64,000 nt of DNA from Candidatus Nanosynbacter sp. Lineage in GTDB: Bacteria > Patescibacteriota > Saccharimonadia > Saccharimonadales > Saccharimonadaceae. The stretch is from assembly GCA_015257485.1 (NCBI GenBank), contig JABZKC010000001.1:5078-69077 (forward strand), in the 5' to 3' direction. Below the pieces are notes generated by a model. It searched no databases. It was not told the DNA's origin and saw only the letters and a program-made list of their open reading frames with translations. Both the position numbers and the translations under genes were made by a program. Below are positions 7,582 through 63,294 of this stretch, piece after piece. Position 1 is the first letter of the stretch, and every line of letters begins with the position of its first letter.

Positions 7582-7834
7582 CAACTAATCCAATTATATC
7601 ATATAAAGATCGATTACACTCTATTATTCCCCCAATCTTGCCCTAGTTAGCCACCCCTCGCTCATTCTGCGAAAAAATACTAAGCATAAGCAAGTTATCA
7701 AAAGCATAAGCAAGTTATGATTTAACTTATTTATTTATCTCCTACCTCTTAAATCCCTACTCAAAATTTATTTTTCTCATCACCAAAATCATCATTTTCT
7801 TGGCATTTTTAACAAAACGATTCATTATAAAAAT

Positions 7835-9415
7835 ATGAATGTTAAAGTTTTTACCGCCATCCCCACCGGCTATTCTGGACAACTTATTGAAGTTGAAGGC
7901 ACCACCAATAAAGGTCTCCCGAGTTTTAATCTCGTGGGTATGGGTGATAAAACTATTCTTGAATCTAGAGAACGCGTTCGCAGTGCCATCATGAATTCAG
8001 ATTTCTCTTTTCCAAAGCACAAAATCACTATCAATCTCGCCCCTGCTGATCTTATTAAAAGTGGCTCTTCTCTGGATTTGCCCATCGCTATCAACATTTT
8101 AATTCTCGCTAAACAACTTCGTGAAGAAGATATCAAAGGCCTCTTTTTTACCGGCGAGTTATCCCTTGACGGCAGCTTAAAGCCAGTTAAGGGCATTCTA
8201 AACATTATCGAAACCGCTAAAACACACGGATTCAAACAAATTTTTCTTCCCGCCGCTTCCGCTACCAAGTCTACTCTTATTCAAGACATCGAAATTTACC
8301 CCGTACGAACCCTTAAACAGCTTTTTCTCCACCTCAAACATCAAATTTATATCCCGCCACTTGATGGTTCAAGTCAAATTTCCCCTCCAGGCCTCACATC
8401 GATTTCAGAAAAGAACTCTACTCCTGCCCTCATCTCTTCTCTTAGCTCCTCTTTCTGCGCCCTTGACCAAATCCAGGGTCTCGATTTTGCCAAGCGCGCT
8501 CTTATCCTAGCTATCGCCGGGCATCACAATCTTCTTCTCTCTGGTCCACCAGGTAGTGGTAAAACTTTGCTCGCGAGTGCAGCCAAAGATCTACTTCCGC
8601 CACCTAGCCCCACAGAGCTCATTTCGATTTACAAAATTCATGGTCTCACTACCGAACTTGATCAAATCCCTCAAAAACGCCCCTTTCGTCAGCCCCACCA
8701 CAGTAGTTCCGCCTGCTCCATTATTGGTGGTGGAAGCCCCATAACTCCAGGTGAAATTTCCCTTGCACATCTCGGCATTCTTTTTCTAGATGAATTACCC
8801 GAATTTCCCCGCTCTGTACTTGAGGCTATGCGTCAGCCACTCGAAGACCACCAAATCTCGATTTCTCGCGCCAAAGAACGCGCCACTTTTCCCGCCAACT
8901 TCACACTTTTTGCCACCATGAACCCCTGCCCCTGTGGTTACTATGGTTCGCACATCAAACCCTGCACCTGCACCCCCACTCAAATTCACAATTACACCAA
9001 ACATCTCAGTGGCCCAATTTTTGACCGCATCGACATCAAGCTTCATCTTCCCTATCTCGATCAAAATCTCCTCATCGATCACCTCTCCACTAAATCACCT
9101 CCAGAGAATTCCGCCAAAAATCTCCACTTCTATCAAAATAAAATCTGTCAAATTACCCAACTTCAAGCTGAACGCTACCATTCTCTAGAAAAATTCAACG
9201 GCACCCTCACGTCTGCTGAGATTTCTCAATACATTCACCTAAACTCAACCCTAAAAACCGAATTAAAACGCGCTACAGAAACCTTTAAGCTTTCCTCTCG
9301 CGCCATCATCAAAATTATCAAACTCAGCCGCACTATCGCCGATTATGATAACTCACCAGAAATCAAACTCGAACATCTCAAGGAAGCCATCTGCTTTGCT
9401 ACCTTTTCACCCTGA
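7835..9415 (+). CDS. comM: YifB/ComM family Mg-chelatase-like AAA+ ATPase
   Basis: N-terminal Lon-protease-like domain (GMGDKTILESRERVRSAI), Walker A LLSGPPGSGKTLLASA and a C-terminal ChlI-like region. 526 aa. Confidence 0.85.
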   Translation: MNVKVFTAIPTGYSGQLIEVEGTTNKGLPSFNLVGMGDKTILESRERVRSAIMNSDFSFPKHKITINLAPADLIKSGSSLDLPIAINILILAKQLREEDIKGLFFTGELSLDGSLKPVKGILNIIETAKTHGFKQIFLPAASATKSTLIQDIEIYPVRTLKQLFLHLKHQIYIPPLDGSSQISPPGLTSISEKNSTPALISSLSSSFCALDQIQGLDFAKRALILAIAGHHNLLLSGPPGSGKTLLASAAKDLLPPPSPTELISIYKIHGLTTELDQIPQKRPFRQPHHSSSACSIIGGGSPITPGEISLAHLGILFLDELPEFPRSVLEAMRQPLEDHQISISRAKERATFPANFTLFATMNPCPCGYYGSHIKPCTCTPTQIHNYTKHLSGPIFDRIDIKLHLPYLDQNLLIDHLSTKSPPENSAKNLHFYQNKICQITQLQAERYHSLEKFNGTLTSAEISQYIHLNSTLKTELKRATETFKLSSRAIIKIIKLSRTIADYDNSPEIKLEHLKEAICFATFSP

Positions 9416-10834: not shown

Positions 10835-10856
10835 AGACCCGTAAGGGTCTATTTTT
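10835..10856. terminator. Bidirectional rho-independent terminator shared by the convergent rpmB and rnpB
   Basis: Hairpin AGACCCGTAAGGGTCT followed by TATTTTT on the plus strand, and by ATTTTGTT on the minus strand. Confidence 0.6.
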
Positions 10857-11262
10857 AAGCTATCAGTAAGCCGGGTTTTGTAACTAAAAGGCGCAAATAC
10901 TCTTATCACAAGTAAAACCACAATAAAAGTTTCTTCCCTTTTTAGCCGATAATCATCTATCTAGATATTTTGTTGCCAAAATATTCAAGCGGTAAGCGTG
11001 CATCTTCGAACCAAAGTTTAGTAGCACTCCTTGCAGCCAGTAGGGTTTGCCATCAACCATGTCACCATGGATTGCCGTAAGCTCTTACCTTACACTTTTC
11101 ACCCTTGCCCGAAGGCGGTATTGTCTCTGTGGTACTTTCCCTATTCTTCAATTTTTTAGGCCGAAGCCGTCTAAATTTTCGAACGGTCGCCATTAACGAC
11201 TACTGCGTTCTATGCTGCCCGGACTTTCCTCTTGGCTAAGCCAAGCGATTATCTTTCAAGCT
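10857..11262 (-). ncRNA. rnpB: RNase P RNA (bacterial type), boundaries approximate
   Basis: Reverse complement contains GCTTGGCTTAGCCAAGAGGAAAGTCCGGGCAGCATAGAACGCAG (P3 hairpin plus the universally conserved GGAAAGUCCGGGC P4 strand). It also contains GGGTGAAAAGTGTAAGGTAAGAGCTTAC and the 3' ACAAAACCCGGCTTAC (P4 3' strand, compare ACAGAACCCGGCUUA). The ORF-track entry 11212..11421 overlaps it and is spurious. Confidence 0.75.
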
Positions 11263-11391
11263 CTACATCTATCTTATCACAATTTTTGTGATATTTTTAT
11301 TACTCAATATTTATGGCCAAAGATCCGTTTATCTACAAAGAATATCTTCACTGATTCTCTCCCATTTTCTCTAGTTTACCACAAGCGGCGT

Positions 11392-12267
11392 TTAAATCTT
11401 TTCAATCGTGTATTCGTCTAAAACCGTATTTAATTCCGCATCCGCTACCTGATTTTGCTCTCGCCTCACGTGCGTAAATGCCACCGCGTCAAATCGCTGA
11501 ATTAATTTCAAAATTTCCTCATACACCGGCAAAATATCACTATTTTTCACTGTATAAATTCCGTTCATTTGATTTACCATCATCAAATTATCCGACACGA
11601 ATTTCACAGTTTTAAATCCATATTCTAATGCTTTATCAATCCCCACCTTCAAGCCATAATATTCTGCCAATCTCGAGGTAGCATAGCCAATAAATTCCCC
11701 ACCTCGCGTTATTTCTTTGCCATTTTCATCAATAATTACGTAACCAACCGCCGATGGCCCCGGATTTCCCCTCGATCCCCCATCAGTATAAATCGTCGCC
11801 CCCAGCGCCGCTGCCCTCGCGTCAATTCGATTCATTTTACTAATCTTCTTATGACCAAATTCCACGCTAACCACCGAGGCAGTATCATCCGCTAAGCGAA
11901 AATCCGAATTAACATCCGCCGAAAAACTTACATATTTATAAGCTGAATATTTCTCATTCAATTCTAGCTTTAAATCACCACTTTCCGCCAAAGTTATATC
12001 ATATATGATATATAAATTATAAATATTCGACCCATCACTTTGATTTGTAAAAGTAATTACATCACGAATTTTAATCGTCTCAATCTTTTGATTCAAAGTC
12101 TCAAAAATCATTCGCCCCATCGCCTCTTCCGGCTGTTCACCAAAATTTATCTTCCCCGCCGGCAAACTCCACATCACCGCATCGGAGTCGTCATGTAATA
12201 CTTTTTTCAATAACAAAAAGCTGTCATCCTTTTTAATAATTCCGACTACTCTAACTTTTTGCTTCAT
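11392..12267 (-). CDS. Nudix hydrolase-like N-terminal domain fused to an RNase H (RNase HI-like) C-terminal domain
   Basis: N-terminal VVGIIKKDDSFLLLKK...LPAGKINFGEQPEEAMGRMIFETL (Nudix-box-like GX5EX7R..E). C-terminal AALGATIYTDGGSRGNPGPSAVGYVI...FVSDNLMMVNQMNG...REQNQVADAEL (RNase H TDGS/NPGP and DxxA signature). Confidence 0.65.
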   Translation of the reverse strand: MKQKVRVVGIIKKDDSFLLLKKVLHDDSDAVMWSLPAGKINFGEQPEEAMGRMIFETLNQKIETIKIRDVITFTNQSDGSNIYNLYIIYDITLAESGDLKLELNEKYSAYKYVSFSADVNSDFRLADDTASVVSVEFGHKKISKMNRIDARAAALGATIYTDGGSRGNPGPSAVGYVIIDENGKEITRGGEFIGYATSRLAEYYGLKVGIDKALEYGFKTVKFVSDNLMMVNQMNGIYTVKNSDILPVYEEILKLIQRFDAVAFTHVRREQNQVADAELNTVLDEYTIEKI

Positions 12268-17175: not shown

Positions 17176-17252
17176 GGGTCGCTAACTCAGCTGGCTAGAG
17201 TGTCTCCTTTACACGGAGGAAGTCGGGGGTTCGAATCCCTCGCGACCCACCA
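17176..17252 (+). tRNA. tRNA-Val (anticodon TAC)
   Basis: GGGTCGC/GCGACCC acceptor stem, D-arm ACTCAGCTGGCTAGAGT, anticodon stem-loop TCTCC-TTTACAC-GGAGG, T-arm GGGGGTTCGAATCCCTC, encoded CCA. Upstream TGGTAAAAT looks like an extended -10. Confidence 0.85.
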
Positions 17253-17301: not shown

Positions 17302-17769
17302 TTATCTCTTTTTCCCTGTAACTTCCAGAATATGATGATAATGCATGTGACCAGGCTCGTCGTCCCAAATCTTAAATTGTCTGCAACTTTCAATTTCTAA
17401 AGCAGTGTCCACAAAAAGACTCCTTAGACTTTCTTCCGTAAATCGCTTTTTTGCCACCTCATCTGCCATCTCGAAGGTGTGAATAAAAAATTTACCACCA
17501 CTTTTCAAATTCTTCGCGATCGAAAAAACCAATGCTTTTGAGCGCACCAATTTCTGTATCACATAATTTGAATAAACCAGATCGTATGGCGCATTCTCTG
17601 ATTGATACAAATAATTTAAATCCACACCAGTTAATAAGTCTACACCATCACACACCCAGCCAAGTTCTCGAAGACCCCTCATATCTACTTCTGGGCCACA
17701 ACCTAAATCTAATGCCTTCCCCGCCACTGGAAATTCTCTTAATACAAACTCTTTTAATTCCGGGTTCAT
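17302..17769 (-). CDS. Class I SAM-dependent methyltransferase (155 aa)
   Basis: LDLGCGPEVDMRGLRELGW (motif I GxGxG) and the Rossmann-fold pattern. Confidence 0.7.
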   Translation of the reverse strand: MNPELKEFVLREFPVAGKALDLGCGPEVDMRGLRELGWVCDGVDLLTGVDLNYLYQSENAPYDLVYSNYVIQKLVRSKALVFSIAKNLKSGGKFFIHTFEMADEVAKKRFTEESLRSLFVDTALEIESCRQFKIWDDEPGHMHYHHILEVTGKKR

Positions 17770-19537: not shown

Positions 19538-19972
19538 TTAACCCTCACCTAGTAATCTAATGAAAACCAAAAAGCCCAGCACTAAAATACCTAGTGAAAT
19601 ACAAATAAACATTTTTGCCACCGCTGCACCTTTTTTCTCAAAAATTCGCAGTGCTAATAGATTATGTAATACCCCCAAAGTTAAAGCCAAGATTGGAAAA
19701 ATCAGCATCGCCTGCCAAGATCCGTCATGGTAACCACCCGAATTTGCCATCGAAGACCATTCTCCACCCTGATAACGTCCGATATCTCCATAGCTAATTT
19801 TCACAATTGAGGCATTTGGTTGCAAATTCAATGCCGAAAAAATCAAAAAAGCCAAAGACAAAATCAAAAGCAAAACCTGAAAAACTACCAGGCTACGCTC
19901 CTTTTGATATGCTTCCTTAAAAGTCGCAATTAATTCTTTCATTTCTCTTATTATACCATTTTTATTTATCAA
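19538..19972 (-). CDS. Hypothetical small membrane protein (144 aa)
   Basis: Three or four hydrophobic helices. Overlaps the upstream gene by 11 nt. Confidence 0.45.
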   Translation of the reverse strand: MINKNGIIREMKELIATFKEAYQKERSLVVFQVLLLILSLAFLIFSALNLQPNASIVKISYGDIGRYQGGEWSSMANSGGYHDGSWQAMLIFPILALTLGVLHNLLALRIFEKKGAAVAKMFICISLGILVLGFLVFIRLLGEG

Positions 19973-20948
19973 GCAATTTACAAATCAAATTCAGCATCAA
20001 TTCCTTCTCTTCCGGTTGACTTTCTGCAATCAAAAGCACCAAAGCCGTCAAAGCCCGATCAGAGAGCTTCGTCTCCCCCTGTTCATTCAATTGAAAGAAA
20101 TTCACCGAAAGATAGACTACAAAAAGTAACGCACTAATCTGTTGATTTCCCTCTAGAAACGGTTTCTCATGTACGATAAAATATAGTAATTTCGCCGCTC
20201 GCCTAGCCACCGAATCGCTTCGTTCGAACAAATTTTGTATTCGGGCCGAAATTAGCGTTTCGCCCCTGTTATTTCCCGCCAGCACCCCGAAATTTTCACT
20301 CTCATTCAATCTTTCGCGTAGGTCTGAAATATAATTTTCAATCTCTACTTCACTCAAATCTCTTCTCGCCCGGGCCTCTACCGAAAAAATAATTTTATTG
20401 TTCAGATACTCTGAAATCGTTGCAAAACTATCCGCATATTTCGTTACCACCTCGAGCACGCCATTTGCCTCATTTGCGCTCAGGCTAGTTTCCGTCAGCA
20501 TTCTACGCACAATTCCCAGCGTTTCCTCTAGGTTCTGCAATTTTTCGCTTTGCTCTGGCAGTTTCTTCACCAAATCATAATTAACCGCCACCCCCTCCGT
20601 CATATAACGCTTAATAATTGAGGAGGCCCAGATACGAAATTTTGTCGCTTTTTTCGAATTTACTCGATAACCTACCGAGATAATCACATCCAAATTATAC
20701 TTTTTAATCTTACGTGCAATCCGGCGACCCCCCTCGAGACGCTCTTCCACCTCTTCCTTCACGCATTTTTCCGCTTCCAGCTCCTCATCAGCAAAAATAT
20801 TACGTAAATGTCTGGAAATTACCGTACGATCCACCTCAAAAAGCTCCGCAATCTTCCCCTGTTCCGCCCAAATCGTCTGATTCATTTCATCTACATCGAA
20901 AAAGACTTCCCCCTCTGCACCCTGATAAATTTCTAGCTTCGTCATCAA
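19962..20948 (-). CDS. RhuM-family protein with a C-terminal degenerate Fic/DOC-like domain
   Basis: N-terminal IYQGAEGEVFFDVDEMNQTIWAEQGKIAELFEVDRTVISRHLRNIF...YNLDVIISVGYRVNSKKATKFRIWAS (RhuM-like). C-terminal HEKPFLEGNQQIS resembles a degenerate Fic motif HPFx(D/E)GNGR. Confidence 0.55.
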   Translation of the reverse strand: MMTKLEIYQGAEGEVFFDVDEMNQTIWAEQGKIAELFEVDRTVISRHLRNIFADEELEAEKCVKEEVEERLEGGRRIARKIKKYNLDVIISVGYRVNSKKATKFRIWASSIIKRYMTEGVAVNYDLVKKLPEQSEKLQNLEETLGIVRRMLTETSLSANEANGVLEVVTKYADSFATISEYLNNKIIFSVEARARRDLSEVEIENYISDLRERLNESENFGVLAGNNRGETLISARIQNLFERSDSVARRAAKLLYFIVHEKPFLEGNQQISALLFVVYLSVNFFQLNEQGETKLSDRALTALVLLIAESQPEEKELMLNLICKLLDK

Positions 20949-34180: not shown

Positions 34181-34270
34181 TTCTCCTCCATATTTTTATT
34201 TTAAATTTTAATTATGAAGCCACTGTGAATTTTCCAAAATCCCCCTCAAATTATGATAAAATGAAATTAC

Positions 34271-34345
34271 GCGAGTGTCGTATAACGGCTATTATATTTC
34301 CTTCCCAAGGAAGAGACGAGGGTCCGACTCCCTCCACTCGCACCA
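34271..34345 (+). tRNA. Putative tRNA-Gly (anticodon CCC). Weak D-arm and an unusual C55 in the T-loop.
   Basis: Perfect 7-bp acceptor GCGAGTG/CACTCGC, anticodon arm TTTCC-TTCCCAA-GGAAG, T-arm GAGGG-TCCGACT-CCCTC, discriminator A, encoded CCA. The D-stem has only 3 pairs. Confidence 0.55.
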
Positions 34346-34600
34346 GACCATAATAAGAAAGAGTATTTATACTCTTTATTTTTATGGTCGCCCGTCCGAG
34401 AAAGACCGCGAAGCGGGATTACTCGCACCAAATCAAAAAAATAAGAACGTTTACGTTCTTTATTTTTTTGATTGCCTGTACGAGAAAGATTACGGAGTAA
34501 TCTTACTCGCACTATTTTTTGAAATGATACTTCATTTTTTTAATTGCCTGTACGAGAAAGACTACGCAGTAATCTTTCTCGTACTAGTGTTTAGTTTCGC
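34346..34600 (+). repeat. Three tandem diverged repeat units of about 70-75 bp downstream of the tRNA-Gly-like gene
   Basis: Units end at 34430, about 34512 and about 34584 with ACTCGCACCA / ACTCGCAC / TCTCGTAC, echoing the tRNA 3' end CCACTCGCACCA. Units 2 and 3 contain 12-15-bp inverted repeats (GTACGAGAAAGAtTAcggagTAATCTTtCTCGtAC). AT hairpins with T-tracts lie between units (AAGAGTATTTATACTCTTTATTTTT; AAGAACGTTTACGTTCTTTATTTTTTT). Confidence 0.6.
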
Positions 34601-34909
34601 CACTACTAAATAATCGATTATTGTTGTTTGACGGCTTAACCCGTTGCTTTCGAGGTCGCCCCATAGTCTTTCTAATCGATTTTTGAACTGATTAGAGGAA
34701 GAGGTATTATTAGGACTTGCGGCAACATTGATTTCAATTTTAGTAAACTCATCATTGAAGGATTTTGCATTTTTCCCCACCTCTGGGTTTTAAAACATAA
34801 GTGGCGGTACTTCACTTACCCAATAGTTATAAATAGCGCGGTCTAAGACACGGCCTATGTTTTTCAAAATAATCTGCTAATTCTTTGCTACCTCATCCAT
34901 AAGGCCTCT

Positions 34910-35611
34910 TTAATTGCTAGTTTCCCAAACACAGCTAATTTCTTTTGATATAGTTATATCATCTGGCTTAAATGTTTCGTCAATGTTTTTAATTTCTTGT
35001 TCTAATCCTTGCATTGGAGCCGAGCCAAAACGGACAGATTTGGCTAGCCCCATATCCCCCATCACTCCATTACGAACAGAATCAATTTCTACACGCACAC
35101 AATCACGTAAATTTTTGTTAGCGGCAACGGCTAGAGCTTCGGCTTTTTTCTTAGCATCTTCGTAGGCGCTAGCAATTAGTTCGCGTTGTTTCGATGCGAC
35201 ATCTTTTAATCCAAAATCTATATGAAGCATTGGTGCATTAGAAATCTTTGACGAAATAGCAAGTAGTTTTGCAAGCCTCATTTTGTCATAATCGAACTCT
35301 AGGTAAGCAAATTGCGAGAAGAAGAAGCCATCAGAAACACGTTTTTGCAAATTTTTTCCCAAATCAGCTTCAGTTTGTGGCTCTAAGCTATTAATATGAA
35401 ATTCTTCTCGAATAAAATATGCTCTGGTCTTAAAATCCTCTGGCTTGAAATCAGTTACCTCCGAGATGCTTTCTATGTAATTTTTTACTTTTTCTACGCC
35501 ACCTTTTAGAGCTTCGTCATAAGTCATAGCGTGAAAATTAAAATTAACACTTGCTTTAATTTGGTCTGGAGCGAAATCTTTTTCTCCTTGGCCATTCACG
35601 AATATCTGCAT
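34910..35611 (-). CDS. SIMPL/DUF541-domain protein (BP26/OMP28-like)
   Basis: 233 aa. The overall pattern (alternating beta-rich segments, ...AYEDAKKKAEALAVAA...RFGSAPM...) resembles SIMPL-family proteins. Judged from pattern only. Confidence 0.5.
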   Translation of the reverse strand: MQIFVNGQGEKDFAPDQIKASVNFNFHAMTYDEALKGGVEKVKNYIESISEVTDFKPEDFKTRAYFIREEFHINSLEPQTEADLGKNLQKRVSDGFFFSQFAYLEFDYDKMRLAKLLAISSKISNAPMLHIDFGLKDVASKQRELIASAYEDAKKKAEALAVAANKNLRDCVRVEIDSVRNGVMGDMGLAKSVRFGSAPMQGLEQEIKNIDETFKPDDITISKEISCVWETSN

Positions 35612-35729
35612 TATTGCCTCCTATTTAATATGTATATTATACCAGAGAATCGAGTTTAAAAAGCACATGTAAACGAATTCACTAAAAAGTCCACCCCTGT
35701 TTCCAGAGGTGGATTCTAATTAATCACAC

Positions 35730-41115: not shown

Positions 41116-42135
41116 TTAGCCTCTTGGTGGTTCGCCTTCCGGCTCGTTTAATAATTTCTTTGACTTAATTTCGTAGCGCTTACCGTTAATTGGCGAAACA
41201 TAATAATCTTCGTTCAAAAGATTCACAAACATCGTCAAATCCTTATCATCCATCATGATAATCGCACCATCATCATCAGTCATAAGTTCGAGTTTCATCT
41301 CGTCTGCATAGTCCACCAATTGTTCTTGCGACATTTGCTCTTCGATGTTCATGTCTTGTAACTTCTTCACTAACGGTTTTTTGTCCATCAAAAGCGCATT
41401 CAAGGTCAAACCTTCCGCGAAAGAAAGTTTGTATTTTTCTTCAATTTCTTTCGCCTTCGCTTCCGCTAACATCTGTGATTTAAAATCGTACTGGAAGAGA
41501 TTTTCAAACTTCGTCTGGTTAAAAATCACTACCGATCCATCGACAAAGGCCACCTGATTATCATCTGGCATCTTCAAAGCCACTTCCGCGGAAAATGGTT
41601 CAAAACTTTCCCCATTCAATTCCCAAGAAGTCTTCGCGTTCAATGCAGAAGCGGCAGAAATTCCCTTCGCGATGTAAAAAACTTTCGTCCCATCATCACC
41701 ACCTGGATAAGAAAACTTCGCAATAATTCCCTTCATCTTCTTGAACTGATGCTCATTATCCGTGAAATAATCGATATCCTTGTATTCTTTTTCAATCAAA
41801 TTTAATAGACTTTCTGCGCGAATCACTTTCGAAAGATCCGTACGATAAATTACCTTATCTTCGCCGTCTGATTTTTCATACTCACGGCATTCCAAACCTT
41901 TTTCAGCGCCCGAAATCACATAAGCGATTGCTTCCCCCATAAACATTTGCTTCACCGAATTAGTTAATTTTTCAGAATAGCGAATCTTAAACGGCGTGTA
42001 GTTTTTGTTAAACAAAAATAGTTCACACGACACATTATTTTTTACCTCATCAAGTTCATTCGCCCACAAAAATACATCAAAATCGTTCAATTTTCGAATT
42101 TCAGAGTTCGTAATTTCAGTCTTTTCGGAATCCAT
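41116..42135 (-). CDS. Hypothetical protein (339 aa), acidic, no recognised domain
   Basis: Long ORF co-directional with neighbours; no motif recognised by eye. Confidence 0.5.
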   Translation of the reverse strand: MDSEKTEITNSEIRKLNDFDVFLWANELDEVKNNVSCELFLFNKNYTPFKIRYSEKLTNSVKQMFMGEAIAYVISGAEKGLECREYEKSDGEDKVIYRTDLSKVIRAESLLNLIEKEYKDIDYFTDNEHQFKKMKGIIAKFSYPGGDDGTKVFYIAKGISAASALNAKTSWELNGESFEPFSAEVALKMPDDNQVAFVDGSVVIFNQTKFENLFQYDFKSQMLAEAKAKEIEEKYKLSFAEGLTLNALLMDKKPLVKKLQDMNIEEQMSQEQLVDYADEMKLELMTDDDGAIIMMDDKDLTMFVNLLNEDYYVSPINGKRYEIKSKKLLNEPEGEPPRG

Positions 42136-43173: not shown

Positions 43174-44385
43174 CTATTTCTGAATTTGCGACACCAATTG
43201 ATAAATCGGCATAAGCACACCGGCAATAATTACTGCAACCATCAAGGTCATAATTACCAACATAATCGGCTCAATCAATGTCGAAATCGTATTAATTTGC
43301 TGATCTAATTCGTCCTCATAGACGTTCGCTGCCTTACCCAGCATTTCATCAATTTTACCAGATTCTTCACCAATCGCCGCCATTTGTGGCAGTAAAGGCA
43401 AAATATAATTTAGCTCTTTCAAAGATGCCGACAAGGTTTTACCCTGTTTCACCTTTTCTGAAACTTCCTTGATTTGTTCTTCCATAACCAAGTTATTAAT
43501 CGCTTCTGCTGAAATTGCCAAAGTATCCTGAATTGACACACCTGTCGAAAGCAAGTTTTCCGCCGTACGCGCGAAACGCCCATTATATAGACGCCAAAAC
43601 ATCAATTTGAATACCGGCATATTCAATTTAATCCTTGCTAAAATATGTCGGCCACTATCGGTACGCACGAACTGGAATACAAAATAGATAATCAAACCCA
43701 GCACGATCGTCACCAACCACCACATATTCACTAAGAAATTCGTGACCGCCACCAGCATATTAGTGATCGCTGGTAAATCTTTTCCAAGATCATGGTAAAG
43801 CTGTTGCACCTGTGGCACCACACCAATCACCATAAATAAAAGCACGCCAATAATTACCGCAAGCACAATTGCCGGATAGGTCAAAGAGTTCTTAATTCTT
43901 GTCACCATCGCATAATCTTTTTCTTGTTGATTAGCTAGTCGTTTTAGTGACATATCTAAAGTACCGGAAGACTCACCAGCTTTTAGTAGTGCTAAATAAA
44001 TTCGATTAAACACTTCTGGAAATTTTGCACAGGCTTGGGTTAGACTTCTACCTGCCTCCACATCTGCCAAAATCGATTCCGTGATGCGACGCATTGGTTT
44101 ACTTCCCGTCTGCTCAATCAAAACTCTCAAGGAATTCGAAAGTGGCAATCCCGCCCCAATCAAAGTCGAAAATTGTCTGGTAAAAACGATTTTATCTTTC
44201 GTGGTAACCTTGTTTTTGAATTTATCAAAAAAACTGTCGCCCGAAGTATCTTCCGTCACCGTATCAGGAGTATAACCACGCTCGATCAAAAGCTTACCGG
44301 CTGCACGTTCACTCTCTGCCTGAATTACACCCTTAATGATTGCGCCCGACTTACTATCACGGGCCTTATAAATATATCGATTCAT
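43174..44385 (-). CDS. pilC: Type IV pilus/type II secretion platform protein (PilC/GspF family)
   Basis: Two GspF repeats and three TM segments, 403 aa. Confidence 0.85.
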   Translation of the reverse strand: MNRYIYKARDSKSGAIIKGVIQAESERAAGKLLIERGYTPDTVTEDTSGDSFFDKFKNKVTTKDKIVFTRQFSTLIGAGLPLSNSLRVLIEQTGSKPMRRITESILADVEAGRSLTQACAKFPEVFNRIYLALLKAGESSGTLDMSLKRLANQQEKDYAMVTRIKNSLTYPAIVLAVIIGVLLFMVIGVVPQVQQLYHDLGKDLPAITNMLVAVTNFLVNMWWLVTIVLGLIIYFVFQFVRTDSGRHILARIKLNMPVFKLMFWRLYNGRFARTAENLLSTGVSIQDTLAISAEAINNLVMEEQIKEVSEKVKQGKTLSASLKELNYILPLLPQMAAIGEESGKIDEMLGKAANVYEDELDQQINTISTLIEPIMLVIMTLMVAVIIAGVLMPIYQLVSQIQK

Positions 44386-45536
44386 TAGGCGCCTTTCACA
44401 ATCCTTTCAAATTCACGTACATCTACTGCATATTCTCTTGCGCTATCATAAGTTACTGTTCCTTGTTGTACTAATTTTGCCAAAGTACGGTCCATGGTTT
44501 GCATACCTTCTGAAGCACCAGTCTGAATTGCCGTATCTAATTGATGAGTTTTTCCTTCACGAATAATCGAGCGAATTGCCGTGTTCGCCACCATAATTTC
44601 TGCCGCACAAACACGTCCGCCACCAATTGCTGGCACTAGACGCTGAGAACAAACTGCCATCAAAATCCCTGCGAGCTGTGAACGAATTTGCGGTTGTTGC
44701 TCTGCTGGGAATACGTCAATCATACGGTCCACTGATTGTGCTGCCGAATTGGTATGTAGTGTCGCGAATACCAAGTGACCAGTTTCCGCAATCGTAATCG
44801 CCGCACTAATTGTCTCGAGGTCACGCATCTCACCGAGTAGTACCACATCTGGATCTTCACGTAGAGCCGACTTTAAAGCCCGACTAAACGAATACGTATC
44901 ATAATGTACTTCGCGCTGCGCCACCAAACTTCGCTTCGATTTATGCGTAAACTCAATCGGATCTTCAATTGTCAAAATATGCACCGATTTTTCACTATTA
45001 ATCTTATTAATAATTGCTGCCAGTGTCGTCGATTTACCAGAACCAGTCGGGCCCGTCACCAAAACCAAACCACGTGGATAATCGGAAAAACCTGAAATCA
45101 CCTGGGGCATACCTAATTCTTCAATCGTTGGCATCTTAGTTGGAATCAAACGAAAAGCCGCTGCAAGATGGCCTTTTTCATTAAAGGCATTCACACGAAA
45201 ACGCGCAATTTCCCCGAAAGCAAACGAATAGTCAAACTCTTTATCCTTCGCCAAAGTTTCACGTTGCATCGAATCTAGCGTCGAGAAAATCAAAGTGTCC
45301 ACAATCTCCGTTGTCAAAATTGGTGTGTTTGGAATTGGTGCTAGTGACCCGTCAATACGTAAAATTGGTGGTAATCCCACCTGAATATGCAAATCCGAAG
45401 CCCCATACTTAATACAGGCTTCTAGTAATGTCTCAATTTTTACGGAATTTGGCACTGCGATTGGCGATGAAGCAGCTGCAGCGGCCTGTGCTGCGGCTGC
45501 TGAGTGTACACTCGTCTGTGCTTGATTTTCTTGCAT
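44385..45536 (-). CDS. pilT: Type IV pilus retraction ATPase PilT
   Basis: ASDLHIQVGLPP, Walker A VTGPTGSGKSTTLAA, Asp box, His box; 383 aa. Confidence 0.85.
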   Translation of the reverse strand: MQENQAQTSVHSAAAAQAAAAASSPIAVPNSVKIETLLEACIKYGASDLHIQVGLPPILRIDGSLAPIPNTPILTTEIVDTLIFSTLDSMQRETLAKDKEFDYSFAFGEIARFRVNAFNEKGHLAAAFRLIPTKMPTIEELGMPQVISGFSDYPRGLVLVTGPTGSGKSTTLAAIINKINSEKSVHILTIEDPIEFTHKSKRSLVAQREVHYDTYSFSRALKSALREDPDVVLLGEMRDLETISAAITIAETGHLVFATLHTNSAAQSVDRMIDVFPAEQQPQIRSQLAGILMAVCSQRLVPAIGGGRVCAAEIMVANTAIRSIIREGKTHQLDTAIQTGASEGMQTMDRTLAKLVQQGTVTYDSAREYAVDVREFERIVKGA

Positions 45537-45580
45537 ATTTACCTCTTATCTTTATTTTACCATAAACTTTTTTATCTTCA

Positions 45581-47332
45581 CTACGCCAAATCTGACGCTA
45601 CGCGATTTACCTCACTTACGGTTGTCACTCCAGTCAGCGCCTTTAACATTCCATCTTGTCGCATCGTCAAAGTACCTTTTTCTTTCGCCAGTTGCATAAT
45701 CTCTGAAGATGTTGCGTGTTTCACAATCATCTTCTGGATATCATCATCAACTTCAATTGTTTCATAAAGACCCACACGTCCCTTATATCCACCCGGCGTT
45801 TCCCTTTCGTCAATTCCCCGCATCATTGAGTAGCCATTCGGATTCACTACTGGAAGTCCCGGATACCCCAAATCTTCCGACACCATCGCCACCTGTTCTT
45901 GACTTTGTGGCAATAATTTCGCTACCAAATCATTAATTTGTTTGGTTTCCATTTCCGTTGAATGCACCACTTCCCGCTTCGGGGCTACACGACGCACCAA
46001 ACGCTGACCAATCACCGTATTTAGTGTCGATGCTAGAAGATATGGTTCAATTCCCATATCTAGAAGCCTTGGCAAAATACCTGCCGCCGAGTTAGTATGC
46101 AAAGTCGAAAATACCAAGTGTCCAGTTAGCGATGCCTGTACGGCTAAGTTAGCCGTTTCCGCATCACGAATCTCACCCACCATTACTACATCTGGGTCTT
46201 GACGTAAAATACTACGCAACCCCGTCGCAAAAGTTAGACCAGCATCCACATTCACCTGAATCTGATTCACACCGCCCATCTTATATTCGACCGGATCTTC
46301 CAGAGTCACGATATTAATCCTGTCGGATTTGATTCGTTTAACCAAAGCATAAAGCGTCGTCGATTTACCAGAACCCGTCGGCCCAGAAGTCAAAATCATT
46401 CCATTCGGACGTTCAATCCCCCGCTGCACCATCGCTAGTGCATGTCCCGTCATCCCCATCTGCTCGATATCGAGCGTCGTCCCACTTTTATCCAAAATAC
46501 GAATCACCACCTGTTCCCCCCAAATCACTGGTGAAACTGCGATACGTAAATCAATTTCTGTACCATCTACCGACACCGTGAACTGACCGTCTTGTGGCAC
46601 CCGGTGCTCATCAATCTTTAAGTTCGCTAAAATCTTAATCCTTGAAACTAGCGCTGGTTCTATCGATTTTGGCAATTCCATTACCTTACGTAAAACCCCA
46701 TCCACTCGGTAACGTACTACCAGTGTTGTCTCCAGTGGCTCAATATGAATATCTGAAGCTTTTGTTTTCGTCGCATAATCTAAAATCGTGGTGAGTGCCT
46801 TCGAAATTGGTGAATCCTGTGTAATCGTTTTTACACTTGAAGAATTTACATCTTCCTCATCACTATTTTTGACCGCTTTTTCCACCGCGCGAAAATCCCC
46901 CTGATACTGAGCAATCGCACTTTTAATTCCTGCCTCGCTGGCCACCATGCCGCGAATCTGTTTTTGGGTCAAAGTCGAAAGATAATCAATCTGTTGCACA
47001 TTCGAGACGTCCAACATCGCCACATAAAGAATTCCGTTTTTCTCCCCTAGTGGCACTACCATCAATCTTGAAACTACATCGTAAGGTAGTAATGTCAAAA
47101 TCTCGCGGTCCATTTTCACGTTATGCAGACTCACATACGGCACATTCATAATCACTGCCGTCGCATGTGAAATAGTCTCAACATCACAAATTTTTTGCGC
47201 TACCAAATTTGCAAGTAATGGCTGTTTACGTTTTTCTGCCTCTTCTACTACTCTTTTTACGTCTGGCTCAAAAACCAACCCTTCCCTTATCAAGAGCTGG
47301 ATCACTTTTTCCTGCGAGTCATGCGTAAACAA
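45581..47332 (-). CDS. pilB: Type IV pilus assembly ATPase (PilB/GspE family)
   Basis: N-terminal GspE_N domain, Walker A LTSGPTGSGKSTTLYA, Asp/His boxes; the tetracysteine zinc motif is absent or degenerate. 583 aa. Confidence 0.9.
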   Translation of the reverse strand: MFTHDSQEKVIQLLIREGLVFEPDVKRVVEEAEKRKQPLLANLVAQKICDVETISHATAVIMNVPYVSLHNVKMDREILTLLPYDVVSRLMVVPLGEKNGILYVAMLDVSNVQQIDYLSTLTQKQIRGMVASEAGIKSAIAQYQGDFRAVEKAVKNSDEEDVNSSSVKTITQDSPISKALTTILDYATKTKASDIHIEPLETTLVVRYRVDGVLRKVMELPKSIEPALVSRIKILANLKIDEHRVPQDGQFTVSVDGTEIDLRIAVSPVIWGEQVVIRILDKSGTTLDIEQMGMTGHALAMVQRGIERPNGMILTSGPTGSGKSTTLYALVKRIKSDRINIVTLEDPVEYKMGGVNQIQVNVDAGLTFATGLRSILRQDPDVVMVGEIRDAETANLAVQASLTGHLVFSTLHTNSAAGILPRLLDMGIEPYLLASTLNTVIGQRLVRRVAPKREVVHSTEMETKQINDLVAKLLPQSQEQVAMVSEDLGYPGLPVVNPNGYSMMRGIDERETPGGYKGRVGLYETIEVDDDIQKMIVKHATSSEIMQLAKEKGTLTMRQDGMLKALTGVTTVSEVNRVASDLA

Positions 47333-47343
47333 AATCTTTTCCT

Positions 47344-47769
47344 TTAATTTTCTTTCTTAGTTTCTGAAGTTTTATCTGAATCCACCTTCATCTTAGAATC
47401 TTGATCTTCACCATCAGAAGTTTTTTCGGCTTCTTCTTTTTTCTCTTCTACCTCTTTTTCTTTTTTCTCTTCTTCTGCCGCAGTCTCCGGCGTAGCGCGA
47501 CCACAAGCCACTAATTCGGCGCGGTCCAAAATACCGTTACGGTCCACATCTTCACAACTACCCACATAAACTTCTACCGTTGGGTTAATCGCATCTACAT
47601 TGAAGACTTCCGGATCAGGACTCGTCAAATCTGCTGTGATTTTACCAATTGTCTTATGCTTTAAATATTTAGCATCTGGATCACCCAATAAGAAGCTTGA
47701 CGCGATGAAAGTAAGCAAGATCCCTACACTAGCAACAAAAGTTACTGTAAAGATATCCGAGCGTTTCAT
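47344..47769 (-). CDS. Hypothetical membrane-anchored protein in the pilus operon (PilP/PilO-position; 141 aa)
   Basis: N-terminal TM (IFTVTFVASVGILLTFIASSFLLG) and a C-terminal E/K-rich tail. Confidence 0.4.
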   Translation of the reverse strand: MKRSDIFTVTFVASVGILLTFIASSFLLGDPDAKYLKHKTIGKITADLTSPDPEVFNVDAINPTVEVYVGSCEDVDRNGILDRAELVACGRATPETAAEEEKKEKEVEEKKEEAEKTSDGEDQDSKMKVDSDKTSETKKEN

Positions 47770-48752
47770 TTCTCATCCTCCTTTTCTTTTTTCTTTGCTT
47801 CTTCTGCTTCTTTTTTCTTGGCTTTTTCCTCAGCCTTTTTCTTCGCCGCCTCGTCTGCCTTGTCTTTCGACTCCTGAGTACGTGCCTTATTTGAGGCATA
47901 AACCGTCGCATCCTTTTCGCGCACCGCCGCACCTTTTGTATAGTACGCTGCACCCTGTGCCGTTAATTCAAGTTTTGAAGATTCTGTTGAAAGATTCGAA
48001 CTCCACTTAATCTGTGCACTTTCGATATTAAAAGAGCGAATCGATTTTTCCAAATTTGAAAGCACCTTCATCGTGTCTTTTTCGTCTTTTTTCACCGAAA
48101 TCGAAACTGGGATGGTTGAGACACCCGGGATTCCACTATTCTTGTATGAATTACCCGGAGATAGTTGCTCCGGCTCAAATCCTGATAGCAGGAAAATTTG
48201 GTTGATGGAAGCGAGCAAGGCTTCATCGTTCTTTTGTGCCGGCAAGGCATCCGGAATCACCCGCAGTGCCGAACACATTTTAATCATCTTCAAATTGTAA
48301 GCCTTTTCATTATCGTTCTTAGAATTCAAATACAACTTCGAATAGTCAATGCGATTTTTTTGATTATCAAAACAACTCTTCTGACCATCGCGCGCAATCG
48401 ATTCTAGGTTTGTATTATTCGCCATTGTCACCAAAGCGTTATAACGCAACGTATTTGCCATCTTCGAAACATCCACCTTGTTTGGATCGCATTTCGCCAG
48501 TTCCTTGTCATTATACTTACCATCCTTATCGGTATCTTCACAAATTCCCACATTCTTAATTGTTTGGTAATAATTATTAATCGAAGTATCACGCGAAGCA
48601 ATCACCTTACTATTGAAGCTCATATATTTAATGAAATAAATCGAAAGTACCATACAAATTCCGAAACAGACTGAGGCCGCCAAAACAATCAAAGTAATTT
48701 GTTGTCTAATCTTATTCATTCGTACGCGTTTTGTTAAAATTAATTCGCTCAT
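47766..48752 (-). CDS. Hypothetical membrane-anchored pilus-biogenesis-associated protein (PilO-position; 328 aa)
   Basis: N-terminal TM after a short cytoplasmic segment, large extracytoplasmic domain, and a C-terminal KKKAEEKAKKKE low-complexity tail. Confidence 0.4.
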   Translation of the reverse strand: MSELILTKRVRMNKIRQQITLIVLAASVCFGICMVLSIYFIKYMSFNSKVIASRDTSINNYYQTIKNVGICEDTDKDGKYNDKELAKCDPNKVDVSKMANTLRYNALVTMANNTNLESIARDGQKSCFDNQKNRIDYSKLYLNSKNDNEKAYNLKMIKMCSALRVIPDALPAQKNDEALLASINQIFLLSGFEPEQLSPGNSYKNSGIPGVSTIPVSISVKKDEKDTMKVLSNLEKSIRSFNIESAQIKWSSNLSTESSKLELTAQGAAYYTKGAAVREKDATVYASNKARTQESKDKADEAAKKKAEEKAKKKEAEEAKKKEKEDEK

Positions 48753-48764
48753 TTTTTACCTTCT

Positions 48765-50270
48765 TTAATTGTTTGTTCCTGATGAAGTTTTCTGCCCCAC
48801 ACATTCCGCATCGTCTCTTGCACAATCCTTGGCTGGTGCAGCAAACATGCCTTCCACCTGGAGATAAGAGTCGGTCACGTTTTGACCAGAAGGGCCAAAT
48901 GTTAAAATGTGCTTATTCGTAAACTTAAAGAGCTCTGGATCTACATTGATAATCGTCGAAAAACGAAGTACTAAGTTTGAGCTTGAATCACGACCGTTCG
49001 AAGAATCCGTCACACGAATGCCATTTGGCACCATTAAACATTTGTTCTCTGCCGACCATTTCACATTATCGCCGTTCTTTTCGCCCTTATAAGTAATACA
49101 GCTACTTTCGAAGTGCGGCACGCTCGAAATTTTACCATCCAATCCCATCGAAGGTGTGTAGATGTAATTTTTTACATTCTTAATTTTCTGCGTGCGAGTC
49201 TTCACACCATTTACTTCCGATTCTGACACTTCTGTATTGGTATCAATCGTGTCTTGGATTCCATCATCTGCCGTACGCATTTTTTCATGCTTATACCAAA
49301 GGTCAAATAATGGACTACGCCAAATCTTTTCATCTGGGATAATCGTCTGAATATCTGTCTTGACTACATCACCATTATTTTCTACATTACCACTCTTTTC
49401 CGTATTTTCCACATGCTCAACATCGTCTGAAACGTTCGATTTTGTCTTTACTTTCCCGAAGTCGCCATTCAATTTCGTATTTGAAACATCGGAATTATTA
49501 TTTGATTGACTTAAGGCATCCCTCTTTTGATGATCATTTCGTGCTGGATCACAGTCGGTTAATCCACGCTTCCAAATCGCATAAGTATTACCATTATCAG
49601 TCAAAATATTTCCCGCCGAATCCGTTTCCTCAATACACCTTGATGGAATCAAATTCCCTTGTGTATCCACATAACGTCCATAGTCATACTTCATCAAATT
49701 CACTGATTTCTTAAATGACTCTAGTACGCGGTAATCAATATATGGTTCCTCCCCCGCATTCGCCTGGGCATCGAAATTAATCGTTGAGTTCGAAAGATTC
49801 ACGTTTAAGTCCGAAATCTTAATTGTATCTTTGTTGGTTGGGAAAAGATTTTTTAACACCGGAAAGACTCGTGACAGAACCGAACGTTTATCATTAATGC
49901 TTTTTAGTTTTGCCAGCTGGTCCTGAATATTCAAGAAATCTGGCAATTCCGAATACTCCTTAATTGTCGAAGAGAGATTATCAATATGCTTACCTTGGCT
50001 ATCAATCGTCAAATCTTGCGTCCCCTTAATCACTGCCAGAAACGCCGTAAAGACTGCTGATCCAATAATTACTAGTACTGAAACAAAAACAATCGTGTTG
50101 CGTAGTTTCATCAACTTCAACATATCGGTCTTAATATCTGGCACCAAATTAATTTCATACTTACCAGTTTGACCCGTCATCATTTCATTGTCATCTTCAC
50201 CAGTGAAAATACTTTTGATCACACCTGGAATATCAGAAAGATGCATGGTTTTAAAATCAATTTTTTTCAT
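48765..50270 (-). CDS. PilN-like inner-membrane pilus alignment protein with an enlarged extracytoplasmic domain (501 aa)
   Basis: N-terminal cytoplasmic motif YEINLVPDIK (the INLLP PilM-binding motif), a single TM, Cys-containing periplasmic domain, and position immediately downstream of pilM. Confidence 0.55.
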   Translation of the reverse strand: MKKIDFKTMHLSDIPGVIKSIFTGEDDNEMMTGQTGKYEINLVPDIKTDMLKLMKLRNTIVFVSVLVIIGSAVFTAFLAVIKGTQDLTIDSQGKHIDNLSSTIKEYSELPDFLNIQDQLAKLKSINDKRSVLSRVFPVLKNLFPTNKDTIKISDLNVNLSNSTINFDAQANAGEEPYIDYRVLESFKKSVNLMKYDYGRYVDTQGNLIPSRCIEETDSAGNILTDNGNTYAIWKRGLTDCDPARNDHQKRDALSQSNNNSDVSNTKLNGDFGKVKTKSNVSDDVEHVENTEKSGNVENNGDVVKTDIQTIIPDEKIWRSPLFDLWYKHEKMRTADDGIQDTIDTNTEVSESEVNGVKTRTQKIKNVKNYIYTPSMGLDGKISSVPHFESSCITYKGEKNGDNVKWSAENKCLMVPNGIRVTDSSNGRDSSSNLVLRFSTIINVDPELFKFTNKHILTFGPSGQNVTDSYLQVEGMFAAPAKDCARDDAECVGQKTSSGTNN

Positions 50271-51316
50271 CAGTCATTGCTCCTTTCTGCAAGTCCAATT
50301 GCTACGCCAAATTCCGATGCCACTGGTAGTAATAATTTCTGCTGTTGCTCATTGACGCGTACATACTGCCATGGATTACCTTGAATTGTCGAAATACCAG
50401 TTTTTACTTCAATATACTCCGCCATTAGTGGAATAATACCTGCATACCCTGAAAGAATAATTCCACCAAATTGTGCTCCTGTGTATTTGTTCTGGAAGAA
50501 ACGTACCGACTTGACTAATTCCATCGTAAAGCCTTCTAAATTGCTCGAAAGCGTTTGATAAATTCTACCTTCGAATTGATTTTGCAATAAACCATATTGC
50601 AAAATAAATTGTTTTGCCTGTGCTTCTGAAATTGAGAGCCCATTCGCTACAGTTTTTACAAAGGCCGAAAGTCCACCCGGAATCGAACGCACTAACCTTG
50701 GCGCACCAAGATACATTACCACTAAATCTGTGGAATTTGCCCCAAAATCGATAATCATTCTTGCATCGTCCACACCAATTTGCGATAAAGCCCTCACCAT
50801 GGCAATCGGTTCTGGCTCCTGTGCAATCACATTCAGCCCCAGCATTTCAATATCTTCGAGTCTCTCTTCCGCGTAGGCACGATCTGTGGATGAAATCAAA
50901 ATCTCTGCCTTCATATTATCATTAGGCGATACTCCAAGCACTGCAAAATCAATCTTCGCATCGTCCACTGCCATCGGAATATACTGATCAGATTCGTACT
51001 TTACAGTTTTTGCTAGTTCCTTTTCTGGAGCATTTGGTACTTCAATAATTGCTGTATAAGTTTTGCGCGCCGGCAAGCCAATCGCGATATTTTTAGTAGT
51101 AATACCCGCCTGCTTTTTCGCGCCCAAAATTGTTTCGGCCAGTTTCCTACGACCCTGCTCCGAATCATCCATCGTAATTTTTTGGTCCACCGGCACATAG
51201 GCGAATTTTTCCAACACCCAACCCTTCTCAATATCGCCCGACAATTGAATCATGCGAATCGAGTTAGTTCCAATATCTAATGCGAAGAAATCGCCCACAC
51301 CACGTAATAGACTCAT
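50270..51316 (-). CDS. pilM: Type IV pilus assembly protein PilM (actin-like ATPase fold)
   Basis: FALDIGTNSIRMIQL (phosphate-1 of the actin fold), 348 aa, and gene order pilM then pilN-like. Confidence 0.85.
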   Translation of the reverse strand: MSLLRGVGDFFALDIGTNSIRMIQLSGDIEKGWVLEKFAYVPVDQKITMDDSEQGRRKLAETILGAKKQAGITTKNIAIGLPARKTYTAIIEVPNAPEKELAKTVKYESDQYIPMAVDDAKIDFAVLGVSPNDNMKAEILISSTDRAYAEERLEDIEMLGLNVIAQEPEPIAMVRALSQIGVDDARMIIDFGANSTDLVVMYLGAPRLVRSIPGGLSAFVKTVANGLSISEAQAKQFILQYGLLQNQFEGRIYQTLSSNLEGFTMELVKSVRFFQNKYTGAQFGGIILSGYAGIIPLMAEYIEVKTGISTIQGNPWQYVRVNEQQQKLLLPVASEFGVAIGLAERSND

Positions 51317-63286: not shown

Positions 63287-63294
63287 TCGTAATT

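Follow-up and report, generated by a model that had tools for sequence, protein, structure and literature searches.

Integration of genetic elements is one established source of partial transfer RNA (tRNA) genes (PMC9897764). The locus considered here is an array of short palindromic modules directly 3' of the tRNA-Gly(CCC) gene of a Candidatus Nanosynbacter sp. (Saccharibacteria), in a 64,000-nucleotide stretch of DNA (GenBank assembly GCA_015257485.1, contig JABZKC010000001.1, positions 5,078 to 69,077 of the forward strand); we call the whole stretch the window and number positions from its first letter. As at the attL and attR attachment (att) repeats of genomic islands, islands in tandem at one tRNA gene included and read with the tRNA-fragment logic of tools such as Islander, an intact tRNA is accompanied by partial direct copies of its 3' end, several of them stacked, strains differ in presence or absence at the repeat, and there is a synteny break with variable genes. 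The locus differs from genomic islands in having no integrase and no cargo, in a spacing of ~85 bp rather than kilobases, in an identity to the tRNA of 8-18 nt, and in that each copy is preceded by its own inverted copy. Stacked tRNA att repeats are the nearest counterpart of the array, although its miniature palindromic form is undescribed; its unusual features are the miniature modules, the built-in terminator and the palindromic units (inverted core, variable hairpin, direct core). Our preferred interpretation, tentative and of not quite even confidence, is that site-specific recombination targeted at tRNA ends left att-type footprints or miniature cassettes here, which homologous recombination and deletion have since reshuffled.

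Three other systems invite comparison. The cis-mobilisable elements (CIMEs) of Streptococcus thermophilus have kept their att sites and lost their recombination genes; they are gene-bearing, kilobases long, and have a known helper integrative and conjugative element. The modules here resemble CIMEs and accretion arrays in being att-flanked without an integrase of their own and stacked at one site, and they too would owe the stacking to successive site-specific events and rely on a recombinase supplied in trans; they differ in their length of 85 bp and in having no known helper. Integron attC sites, and arrays of them without an integrase gene (clusters of attC sites lacking integron-integrases, CALIN), share the order of inverted core, variable hairpin and direct core, with conserved stem mismatches, and the attC property of a hairpin whose structure is kept despite sequence change is also seen here, with covariation in four inner pairs. 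As with integron cassettes, the primary site has the same core, the modules assort between strains and neighbours do not evolve in concert. The attC core consensus RYYYAAC/GTTRRRY is however absent (the arms here are GTMCGAG and CTCGCAC), Pfam and seed searches found no IntI or other tyrosine recombinase, the cassettes carry no open reading frame (ORF) and only a terminator hairpin, and a tRNA 3' end serves as primary site. Finally, CTXphi integrates through an attP in which folding of single-stranded DNA brings two inverted dif-like sites together, integration is irreversible, and tandem arrays form at dif. Elements of this type (integrative mobile elements exploiting Xer recombination) likewise show inverted and direct target copies separated by a loop at one junction. 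A CTXphi model, with host-encoded recombination, would explain both the missing integrase and an irreversible tandem accumulation, although the target here is a tRNA end instead of dif, there are no phage genes, and the likeness to a single-stranded substrate would be one of layout only. The attC-like resemblance to integrons and to the folded CTXphi attP is thus a likeness of layout and not a class assignment.

In the window, three modules of 85, 84 and 72 bp follow directly on the CCA of the tRNA and the array ends at 34586. The features of the locus are as follows.

34254 to 34262, + strand: putative extended -10 element TGATAAAAT, 8 nt 5' of the tRNA, proposed from sequence alone
34271 to 34345, + strand: tRNA-Gly(CCC) gene, CCA encoded (ARAGORN; Rfam RF00005)
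34346 to 34389, + strand: spacer hairpin A, a 21-bp AT-rich inverted repeat with inner stem AAAGAGTA/TACTCTTT, then a T-run (repeat I2, 90% complementary; fold)
34390 to 34430, + strand: unit A, GCCCGTCCGAGAAAGACCGCGAAGCGGGATTACTCGCACCA, with left arm GTCCGAG, mini-hairpin GCGAAGC and right arm ACTCGCACCA, the exact tRNA 3' end (direct repeats D1 and D2; fold of -13.5 kcal/mol)
34431 to 34473, + strand: spacer hairpin B, bidirectional and terminator-like, AATCAAAAAAATAAGAACG TTTA CGTTCTTTATTTTTTTGATT (inverted repeats I6 and I7; terminator scan on both strands)
34474 to 34514, + strand: unit B, a 16+16-nt near-palindrome ending in ACTCGCACTA (inverted repeat I5, 88% complementary; fold)
34515 to 34545, + strand: spacer C, a short decayed hairpin AAATGA/TCATTT, then a T-run (sequence; fold)
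34546 to 34586, + strand: unit C, a 16+16-nt near-palindrome ending in TCTCGTACTA, where the tRNA end is copied in its most decayed form (inverted repeat I3, 94% complementary; fold)
34587 to 34909, no strand assigned: species-specific tail between the array and the SIMPL gene, common to strains of the species whatever module precedes it

Each module has the same plan, an AT-rich hairpin with a T-run and then a 41-nt near-palindromic unit. The right arm of the unit (CTCGCAC in the aligned set) is a direct copy of the last 8-10 nt of the tRNA, the left arm (GTMCGAG) is an inverted copy, and a small variable hairpin, often GCGAAGC, lies between them. Successive repeat copies start 84 and 72 nt apart and are 68% and 87% identical to the reference copy; Tandem Repeats Finder makes no call in the array because the copies are too diverged. 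An earlier sequence-only reading of this DNA had described three units of about 70-75 bp, reaching to 34610, each ending in a version of the tRNA 3' end and together representing copies of its 3' half. The unit ends are as it described, the three closing on ACTCGCACCA, ACTCGCACTA and TCTCGTACTA, respectively. The periods and the array end need correcting to the values above, and the copied part shrinks from the 3' half to the last 8-10 nt, or up to 18 nt in the D-type units found elsewhere. The palindromic build of each unit on the tRNA end had been missed. Two ORFs laid over the array, 34275-34613 (+) and 34267-34512 (-), had been called spurious; both overlap the tRNA and neither has a Pfam match, in keeping with that call.

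The tRNA gene is real: ARAGORN assigns the anticodon as Gly(ccc) at 34271-34345, and Rfam RF00005 matches there with 54.9 bits against a gathering threshold of 29. As had been read from the letters, the acceptor and T stems of the cloverleaf are perfect, as is the anticodon stem, and the D-stem is weak (one G.T and one T:T). The T-loop reads TCCGACT, and position 55 is therefore C, where U is near-universal. Some 30 related loci, from many species, have all 75 nt of the gene unchanged; in one metagenome variant (L208) the T-loop reads TCCAACT. Upstream, the putative -10 element TGATAAAAT is not among the matches of a consensus scan. A tandem duplication of 19-23 nt (TTTCCGAAATC..CTCAAATTAT) precedes the gene in five related loci (L002, L006, L007, L009 and L011) and lies in the presumed tRNA-Gly promoter region, for which the window equivalent is ~34230-34262.

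The strong hairpins predicted for the second and third units were borne out. Unit B forms a 16-pair hairpin with two mismatches. Its fold z-score is -3.6 for the + strand and improves to -6.0 for the - strand, in which G.U replaces an A.C mismatch; unit C forms a 16-pair hairpin with one mismatch (z-score -6.4). Unit A folds more weakly (-2.2), and the entire array region has a z-score of -9.8 relative to shuffled sequence. The AT-rich stem-loops with U-runs that had been placed between the units are also present, one of them terminator-like on both strands: the stem-loop plus T-run pattern is found in spacer B by a scan of both strands and in spacers A, C and D by eye. From their sequence, these AT-rich hairpins probably terminate transcription, and spacer hairpin A is presumably the intrinsic terminator of tRNA-Gly(CCC). 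In an alignment of 39 distinct units, double-sided changes affect four inner pairs of the stem, each in 9-17 sequences, and 78% of the cells are paired compared with 29-43% in slid-partner controls; an A.C mismatch at columns 7/37 and an A.A mismatch at columns 12/32 are conserved. The spacer hairpins also show compensatory changes (GAGTA/TACTC to GAGCA/TGCTC, and AATC../..GATT to AATT../..AATT), and other strains carry a compensatory variant of spacer A, GAGCAT..ATGCTC. Template-switch correction of quasi-palindromes can imitate such covariation without selection. Scans of the array with Rfam at both gathering and E-value thresholds returned the tRNA only. A known RNA family was considered and set aside, the microRNA-type Rfam matches being generic hairpins far under threshold.

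Related arrays were collected in three ways. An 18-nt probe of the tRNA end gave 62 loci in species-representative genomes, among which the loci with this tRNA belong to Saccharibacteria/TM7, including Candidatus Nanosynbacter sp. and TM7 oral taxon 351; a look-up of the SIMPL protein encoded next to the array gave ten metagenome loci (L002-L011) with a 100% identical protein; and a search with the unit pattern gave 46 further metagenome loci. Identity to the window in the FtsX gene upstream of the tRNA is 86-94% across the Gly(CCC) loci, apart from two that are near-identical. Some 100 related loci have between zero and five modules right behind a tRNA-Gly gene; in the 88 tRNA-Gly arrays that were tallied the number is 0-5. 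The number and order of modules vary even among the ten loci with identical SIMPL protein, and the alternative states that had been suggested for the locus are thus seen directly:

Window: A-B-C
L005: D-A-B-C
L003 and L010: D-A
L007: D-B'
L011: A-B'-D'
L006 and L008: A-B''-D
L002: B'-D-A
L004: two modules, a hybrid (A spacer with B' unit) and then D'
L009: three modules, the first a hybrid similar to that of L004

Some of these states are exact one-module insertions or deletions bounded by the core repeat ACTCGCACCA. The window (A-B-C) and L005 (D-A-B-C) differ in this way, as do L089 (A) and L003 (D-A), and each of these two pairs provides an occupied and an empty state at the repeat. The complete 85-nt module A, spacer and unit, is identical in 14 loci while the flanking gene is ~10% diverged. 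Modules within one array have a median identity of 0.62, whereas the best match of a module in another array has a median of 0.99, and near-duplicate modules occur together in just one of 56 arrays. A tandem repeat under concerted evolution would show the reverse. Pairings of spacer type with unit type have been partly reshuffled on both sides (mutual information, 1.59 and 1.78 bits), which together with the hybrid units means that homologous exchange inside the conserved arms also occurs. Deletions are found in L095 and L096, where a half-unit or half-spacer is fused to a downstream terminator.

The copies decay with distance from the tRNA; the earlier reading had called those of the window decaying. 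Mean mismatches to the core ACTCGCACCA rise from 0.33 at the first position of the array to 1.30 at the second and 2.19 at the third. Of 56 distinct arrays, 40 have a last unit that is further decayed than the first, and four show the opposite; these arrays are related by descent, and the counts are therefore not independent. Likewise, D-type units keep their 18 nt of tRNA identity when proximal to the tRNA and are degraded when distal.

The modules are confined to tRNA ends. A 21-nt unit probe has no other match in the window (expected chance matches, 0.00), and hidden Markov models (HMMs) of the modules, run against 817 kb of Saccharibacteria DNA, place all copies of a locus in one cluster, 440 nt long at most, with none elsewhere in the window or in the 817 kb outside arrays. 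A REP-like family is therefore excluded. The sequence-only reading had named genome-wide dispersal of that kind as the outcome that would speak against it, and none was seen. Short intergenic hairpin repeats are common to this locus and to repetitive extragenic palindromic (REP) sequences, bacterial interspersed mosaic elements (BIMEs) and miniature inverted-repeat transposable elements (MITEs), but the repeats here are undispersed, sit in one cluster per locus after tRNA-Gly genes only and lack terminal inverted repeats; a genome-wide REP/BIME/MITE family was rejected, since both the probe searches and the module HMMs match arrays only. In all 46 metagenome loci from the unit-pattern search, the unit is in an array directly after tRNA-Gly or at a contig end.

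The same module family stands behind two different genes, tRNA-Gly(CCC) in the FtsX context and tRNA-Gly(TCC) in a tRNA-His/tRNA-Gly context, just downstream of tRNA-His. The Gly(TCC) loci have no overlap with the window. The body and T-arm (GAGAGTTCGATTCTCTC) of tRNA-Gly(TCC) differ from those of Gly(CCC), and the acceptor 3' end CCACTCGCACCA is common to both. Between the two kinds of locus, identity is 88-98% for unit types A, B' and B'' and ~84% for the A spacer, with one or two base changes in spacer B. In gut-lineage tRNA-Gly(TCC) loci the identity of the unit to the tRNA begins in the T-loop, and in L051, from gut or rumen Saccharibacteria, a 67-nt sequence stands twice in tandem, without a difference, behind tRNA-Gly(TCC).

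Other tRNA genes carry copies of their own ends. A 10-mer test found a 3'-end copy downstream of 14 of 77 tRNAs and upstream of none. A common plan of terminator, inverted copy of the gene's own 3' region, mini-hairpin loop and direct 3'-end copy recurs at tRNA-Ser(GGA), at tRNA-His (L067 and L101, also from gut or rumen Saccharibacteria), at the gut-lineage tRNA-Gly(TCC) and at the tRNA of L094. At L101 a 28-nt direct repeat of the whole T-arm and acceptor end follows tRNA-His, and L067 has a ~140-nt insert bounded by repeats of the tRNA-His 3' end plus terminator. The tRNA-Ser(GGA) case lies in the window:

62898 to 62987, + strand: tRNA-Ser(GGA) gene
62898 to 63287, + strand: tRNA-Ser(GGA) array as a whole, the second example in the window

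Here a terminator hairpin is followed by ~200 nt that contain two terminator-like hairpins as well as inverted, degenerate copies of the 3' region of the tRNA. The array ends in a palindromic unit (63188-63248; fold of -23.3 kcal/mol) that closes on an exact 19-nt copy of the tRNA 3' end (63230-63248), after which comes a second copy of the tRNA-Ser terminator, making a direct repeat of 58 nt in total. Strain variants differ in the tRNA-proximal terminator and show compensatory changes in the mini-hairpin. The claim that the units derive from the adjacent tRNA 3' end is upheld by the unit ends ACTCGCACCA, ACTCGCACTA and TCTCGTACTA in the window and by the D-type units of other strains, which copy 18 nt. 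A motif found after tRNA-Ser, tRNA-His and the L094 tRNA, GAGAACCG, was considered as a possible ribozyme core and rejected, being an inverted copy of the universal T-loop.

The restriction to tRNA ends, the use of each gene's own end, the two tRNA-Gly genes that share that end only, and the assortment of cassettes fit tRNA-targeted recombination better than random duplication. In brief, each insertion into the tRNA end would add one ~85-bp module, comprising a terminator hairpin right after the CCA, with which the tRNA would still be properly terminated, an inverted target arm, a small variable hairpin and a direct copy of that end. The tRNA itself would remain intact and displaced copies would accumulate downstream, where, no longer under selection as tRNA, they would decay. 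Homologous recombination in the unit arms and small deletions would then reshuffle and trim the stack, giving strain-specific combinations. The insertions would have been made by a site-specific recombinase acting in trans, and the palindromes suggest that it may act on folded single-stranded DNA. The modules are probably complete mini-elements and not trimmed remnants of larger ones. A further step, which we consider improbable as it stands, would be a so far undescribed Saccharibacteria cassette system in which two-hairpin modules, each a terminator with an attC-like palindrome of the target, are inserted beside the 3' ends of particular tRNA genes by a recombinase encoded elsewhere, acting on a folded single-stranded substrate, with the single genes distal to the arrays as larger cassettes; such a system would be likened to integron attC x attI or CTXphi/XerCD recombination, with the tRNA end as the primary site.

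Several results weigh against tRNA-targeted recombination. No integrase, recombinase or transposase was found in Pfam scans of 48 window ORFs, nor any integrase or recombinase in precomputed Pfam annotation for +-6 kb in ten loci; phmmer with three recombinase seeds, at the sensitivity of single sequences, gave no match in 2,281 ORFs; and over the window and ~100 loci no integrase, serine recombinase or HUH transposase was found. The machinery implied by integration and excision, including an excisionase and cargo, is thus absent at or near the locus, and the DNA between the repeats holds hairpin spacers of 31-49 nt only. No free attP emerged either: two pattern scans of IMG/VR gave chance matches or phage tRNA genes only, BLAST against phage and plasmid collections gave no match to a unit or module, and none was seen among the 46 metagenome loci. 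With no unit in a virus, plasmid or non-tRNA context, the donor element has never been seen. Modules of 85 bp are too small for autonomy or for duplex circularisation, and in a classical attR site an inverted copy of the core is not to be expected. Since the spacers of different modules are mutually homologous, a single ancient duplication followed by divergence could yield the module types, and the decay gradient could reflect gene conversion by the tRNA instead of age. Strict addition at the tRNA-proximal end is unsupported by the module-type strings: the arrays have 86 modules in common as prefixes and 45 as suffixes, and the additional modules that set two arrays apart are distal in 18 pairs and proximal about as often, in 12 pairs, so that polar addition in the manner of CRISPR is not demonstrated. 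The original proposal of serial integration and excision therefore survives in part. Origin from the tRNA end, alternative states and distal decay agree with it; an integrase, an attP, strictly proximal addition and excision scars do not come out, and as precise excision leaves no scar, integration and excision alone cannot explain the stack.

A purely local origin is the strongest alternative, and we consider it somewhat unlikely. On this account a duplication of the tRNA end and its terminator gained an inverted arm by fold-back (template switching) and was then subject to tandem amplification, divergence, deletions and unequal crossover, with exchange between strains by transformation and ectopic gene conversion between the two tRNA-Gly loci, and with neither a mobile element nor a site-specific recombinase. 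All modules, spacers as well as units, are on one framework and plausibly homologous. Breakpoints fall inside the left arm of the unit as well as in the core (L004 compared with L011, and the hybrid units), the truncation junctions in L095 and L096 lie at A-runs, and the tandem copies in L051 are identical. That the searches found neither recombinase nor donor element also fits, as do the type IV pilus proteins and the Mg-chelatase/ChlI-family protein in the window, which would suit DNA uptake, and template switching at quasi-palindromes can yield 'compensatory' changes without selection. However, active unequal crossover predicts near-duplicates and concerted evolution, against the single array in 56 with a near-duplicate pair. 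The inverted-plus-direct plan at at least four tRNA genes in different lineages, each using its own end, argues for a tRNA-targeted process, and spread between Gly(CCC) and Gly(TCC) would have had only 12 nt of common sequence to start from.

It is less probable again that the array is selected for a function, either as stacked bidirectional terminators that insulate the tRNA from the convergent SIMPL operon, or as a source of small hairpin RNAs or antisense RNAs, which would imitate the 3' end of tRNA-Gly or base-pair with it. The tRNA-Gly(CCC) gene is on the + strand and nearly all other window genes are on the - strand, including the downstream, convergent SIMPL operon, with GC skew strongly negative throughout. 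Such an arrangement would suit insulation, as would the terminator-like spacers, some of them on both strands. The maintenance of pairing by double-sided changes in both hairpins (78% against the 29-43% of the controls), the better - strand fold of unit B with its A.C turned to G.U, and persistence in very small, gene-dense genomes across a genus are all consistent with selection. Yet the content is dispensable, with anything from zero to five modules of any type and some arrays cut by deletion, and the distal units decay. Every unit lies 3' of a terminator on the tRNA strand and should be poorly transcribed, the convergent gene in other species has its own strong terminator before the array, and no Rfam family matches.

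A degenerate CRISPR-like (clustered regularly interspaced short palindromic repeats) array with the tRNA as its fixed leader is scarcely credible: the alternation of ~41-nt palindromic repeats with ~43-nt spacers, the degenerate distal repeats and the strain-specific content recall one, but the repeats are merely 68-87% alike, the spacers are conserved, mutually homologous AT-rich terminator hairpins nearly identical between species, no cas-family Pfam domain occurs within +-6 kb in ten loci or in the 48 window ORFs, and the Rfam CRISPR repeat models do not match the units, the homologous spacers and divergent repeats effectively ruling it out.

If tRNA-targeted recombination did build the array, it would be a compact record of mobile-DNA traffic in an ultra-small epibiont phylum in which, to our knowledge, few mobile elements are known. 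The attC-like palindromic units would hint at a recombination chemistry not yet described for tRNA sites. If the array is merely decaying junk, its persistence in genomes of ~1 Mb, the size typical of Saccharibacteria, would be a useful measure of deletion bias. As the array is hypervariable among strains with identical neighbouring proteins, it is a possible strain-typing marker for oral Saccharibacteria, and ORF callers lay spurious genes over it. It also appears to break metagenome assemblies, because several contigs end inside: those of L190-L192, L195, L197, L211, L242, L096 and L099 end inside or at the edge of tRNA-Gly or tRNA-Ser arrays. One metagenome-assembled genome (L049 and L099) has tRNA-Gly(CCC) in front of two different downstream contexts, perhaps through chimeric assembly via shared modules.

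The surroundings of the array are themselves variable. Synteny between species is kept up to the array and again from ~35668, and the 0.7-2.7 kb between the array and the conserved right flank holds different single genes by species. In this gene slot (34585-35668; compared over loci L049-L108) the window has SIMPL, and elsewhere there is a ~238-aa protein with a metallo-beta-lactamase (MBL) fold, a 155-aa S-adenosylmethionine (SAM) methyltransferase or a radical-SAM/SPASM-like protein. No significant flanking units were detected at the variable distal genes by module HMM. A degenerate unit at the right border of the slot in MBL contexts, faint by eye and undetected by the HMM, was not accepted, and a large element or distant attR was rejected after no further copy of the tRNA end was found within 4-8 kb on each side in the 37 Saccharibacteria loci from the species-representative genomes. 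Elsewhere in the window, a Methyltransf_23 gene (17302-17769, - strand) lies directly downstream of tRNA-Val (17176-17252). It is a paralogue of the SAM methyltransferase gene that lies directly downstream of the tRNA-Gly array in other species, with 66-69% DNA identity, and the same cargo gene family therefore stands beside two different tRNA genes.

In the species-specific tail (34587-34909), the - strand has an open frame of 59-75 codons (NPEVGK.AKSFNDEFTKIEINVA...) in all strains of the species, with many amino-acid differences between strains and a C-terminus that varies. It has no match in Pfam and may be either a small gene or what is left of one. The window also encodes a Mg-chelatase/ChlI-family ATPase, which we take to be ComM-like, a fusion of NUDIX and RNase H-like (RVT_3) domains, a RhuM-family protein, a KwaB-like (Kiwa defence) protein and a type IV pilus cluster with PilM, a T2SSE ATPase and T2SSF; these genes lie at 7835-9415, 11392-12267, 19962-20948, 41116-42135 and 43174-51316, and genes of mobile elements were not seen. 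The transfer-messenger RNA (tmRNA) and RNase P RNA genes are on the - strand at 7232-7582 and 10852-11264, and the 2-kb bin with the lowest GC content of the window (6001-8000; 0.32 against ~0.41) holds the tmRNA gene.

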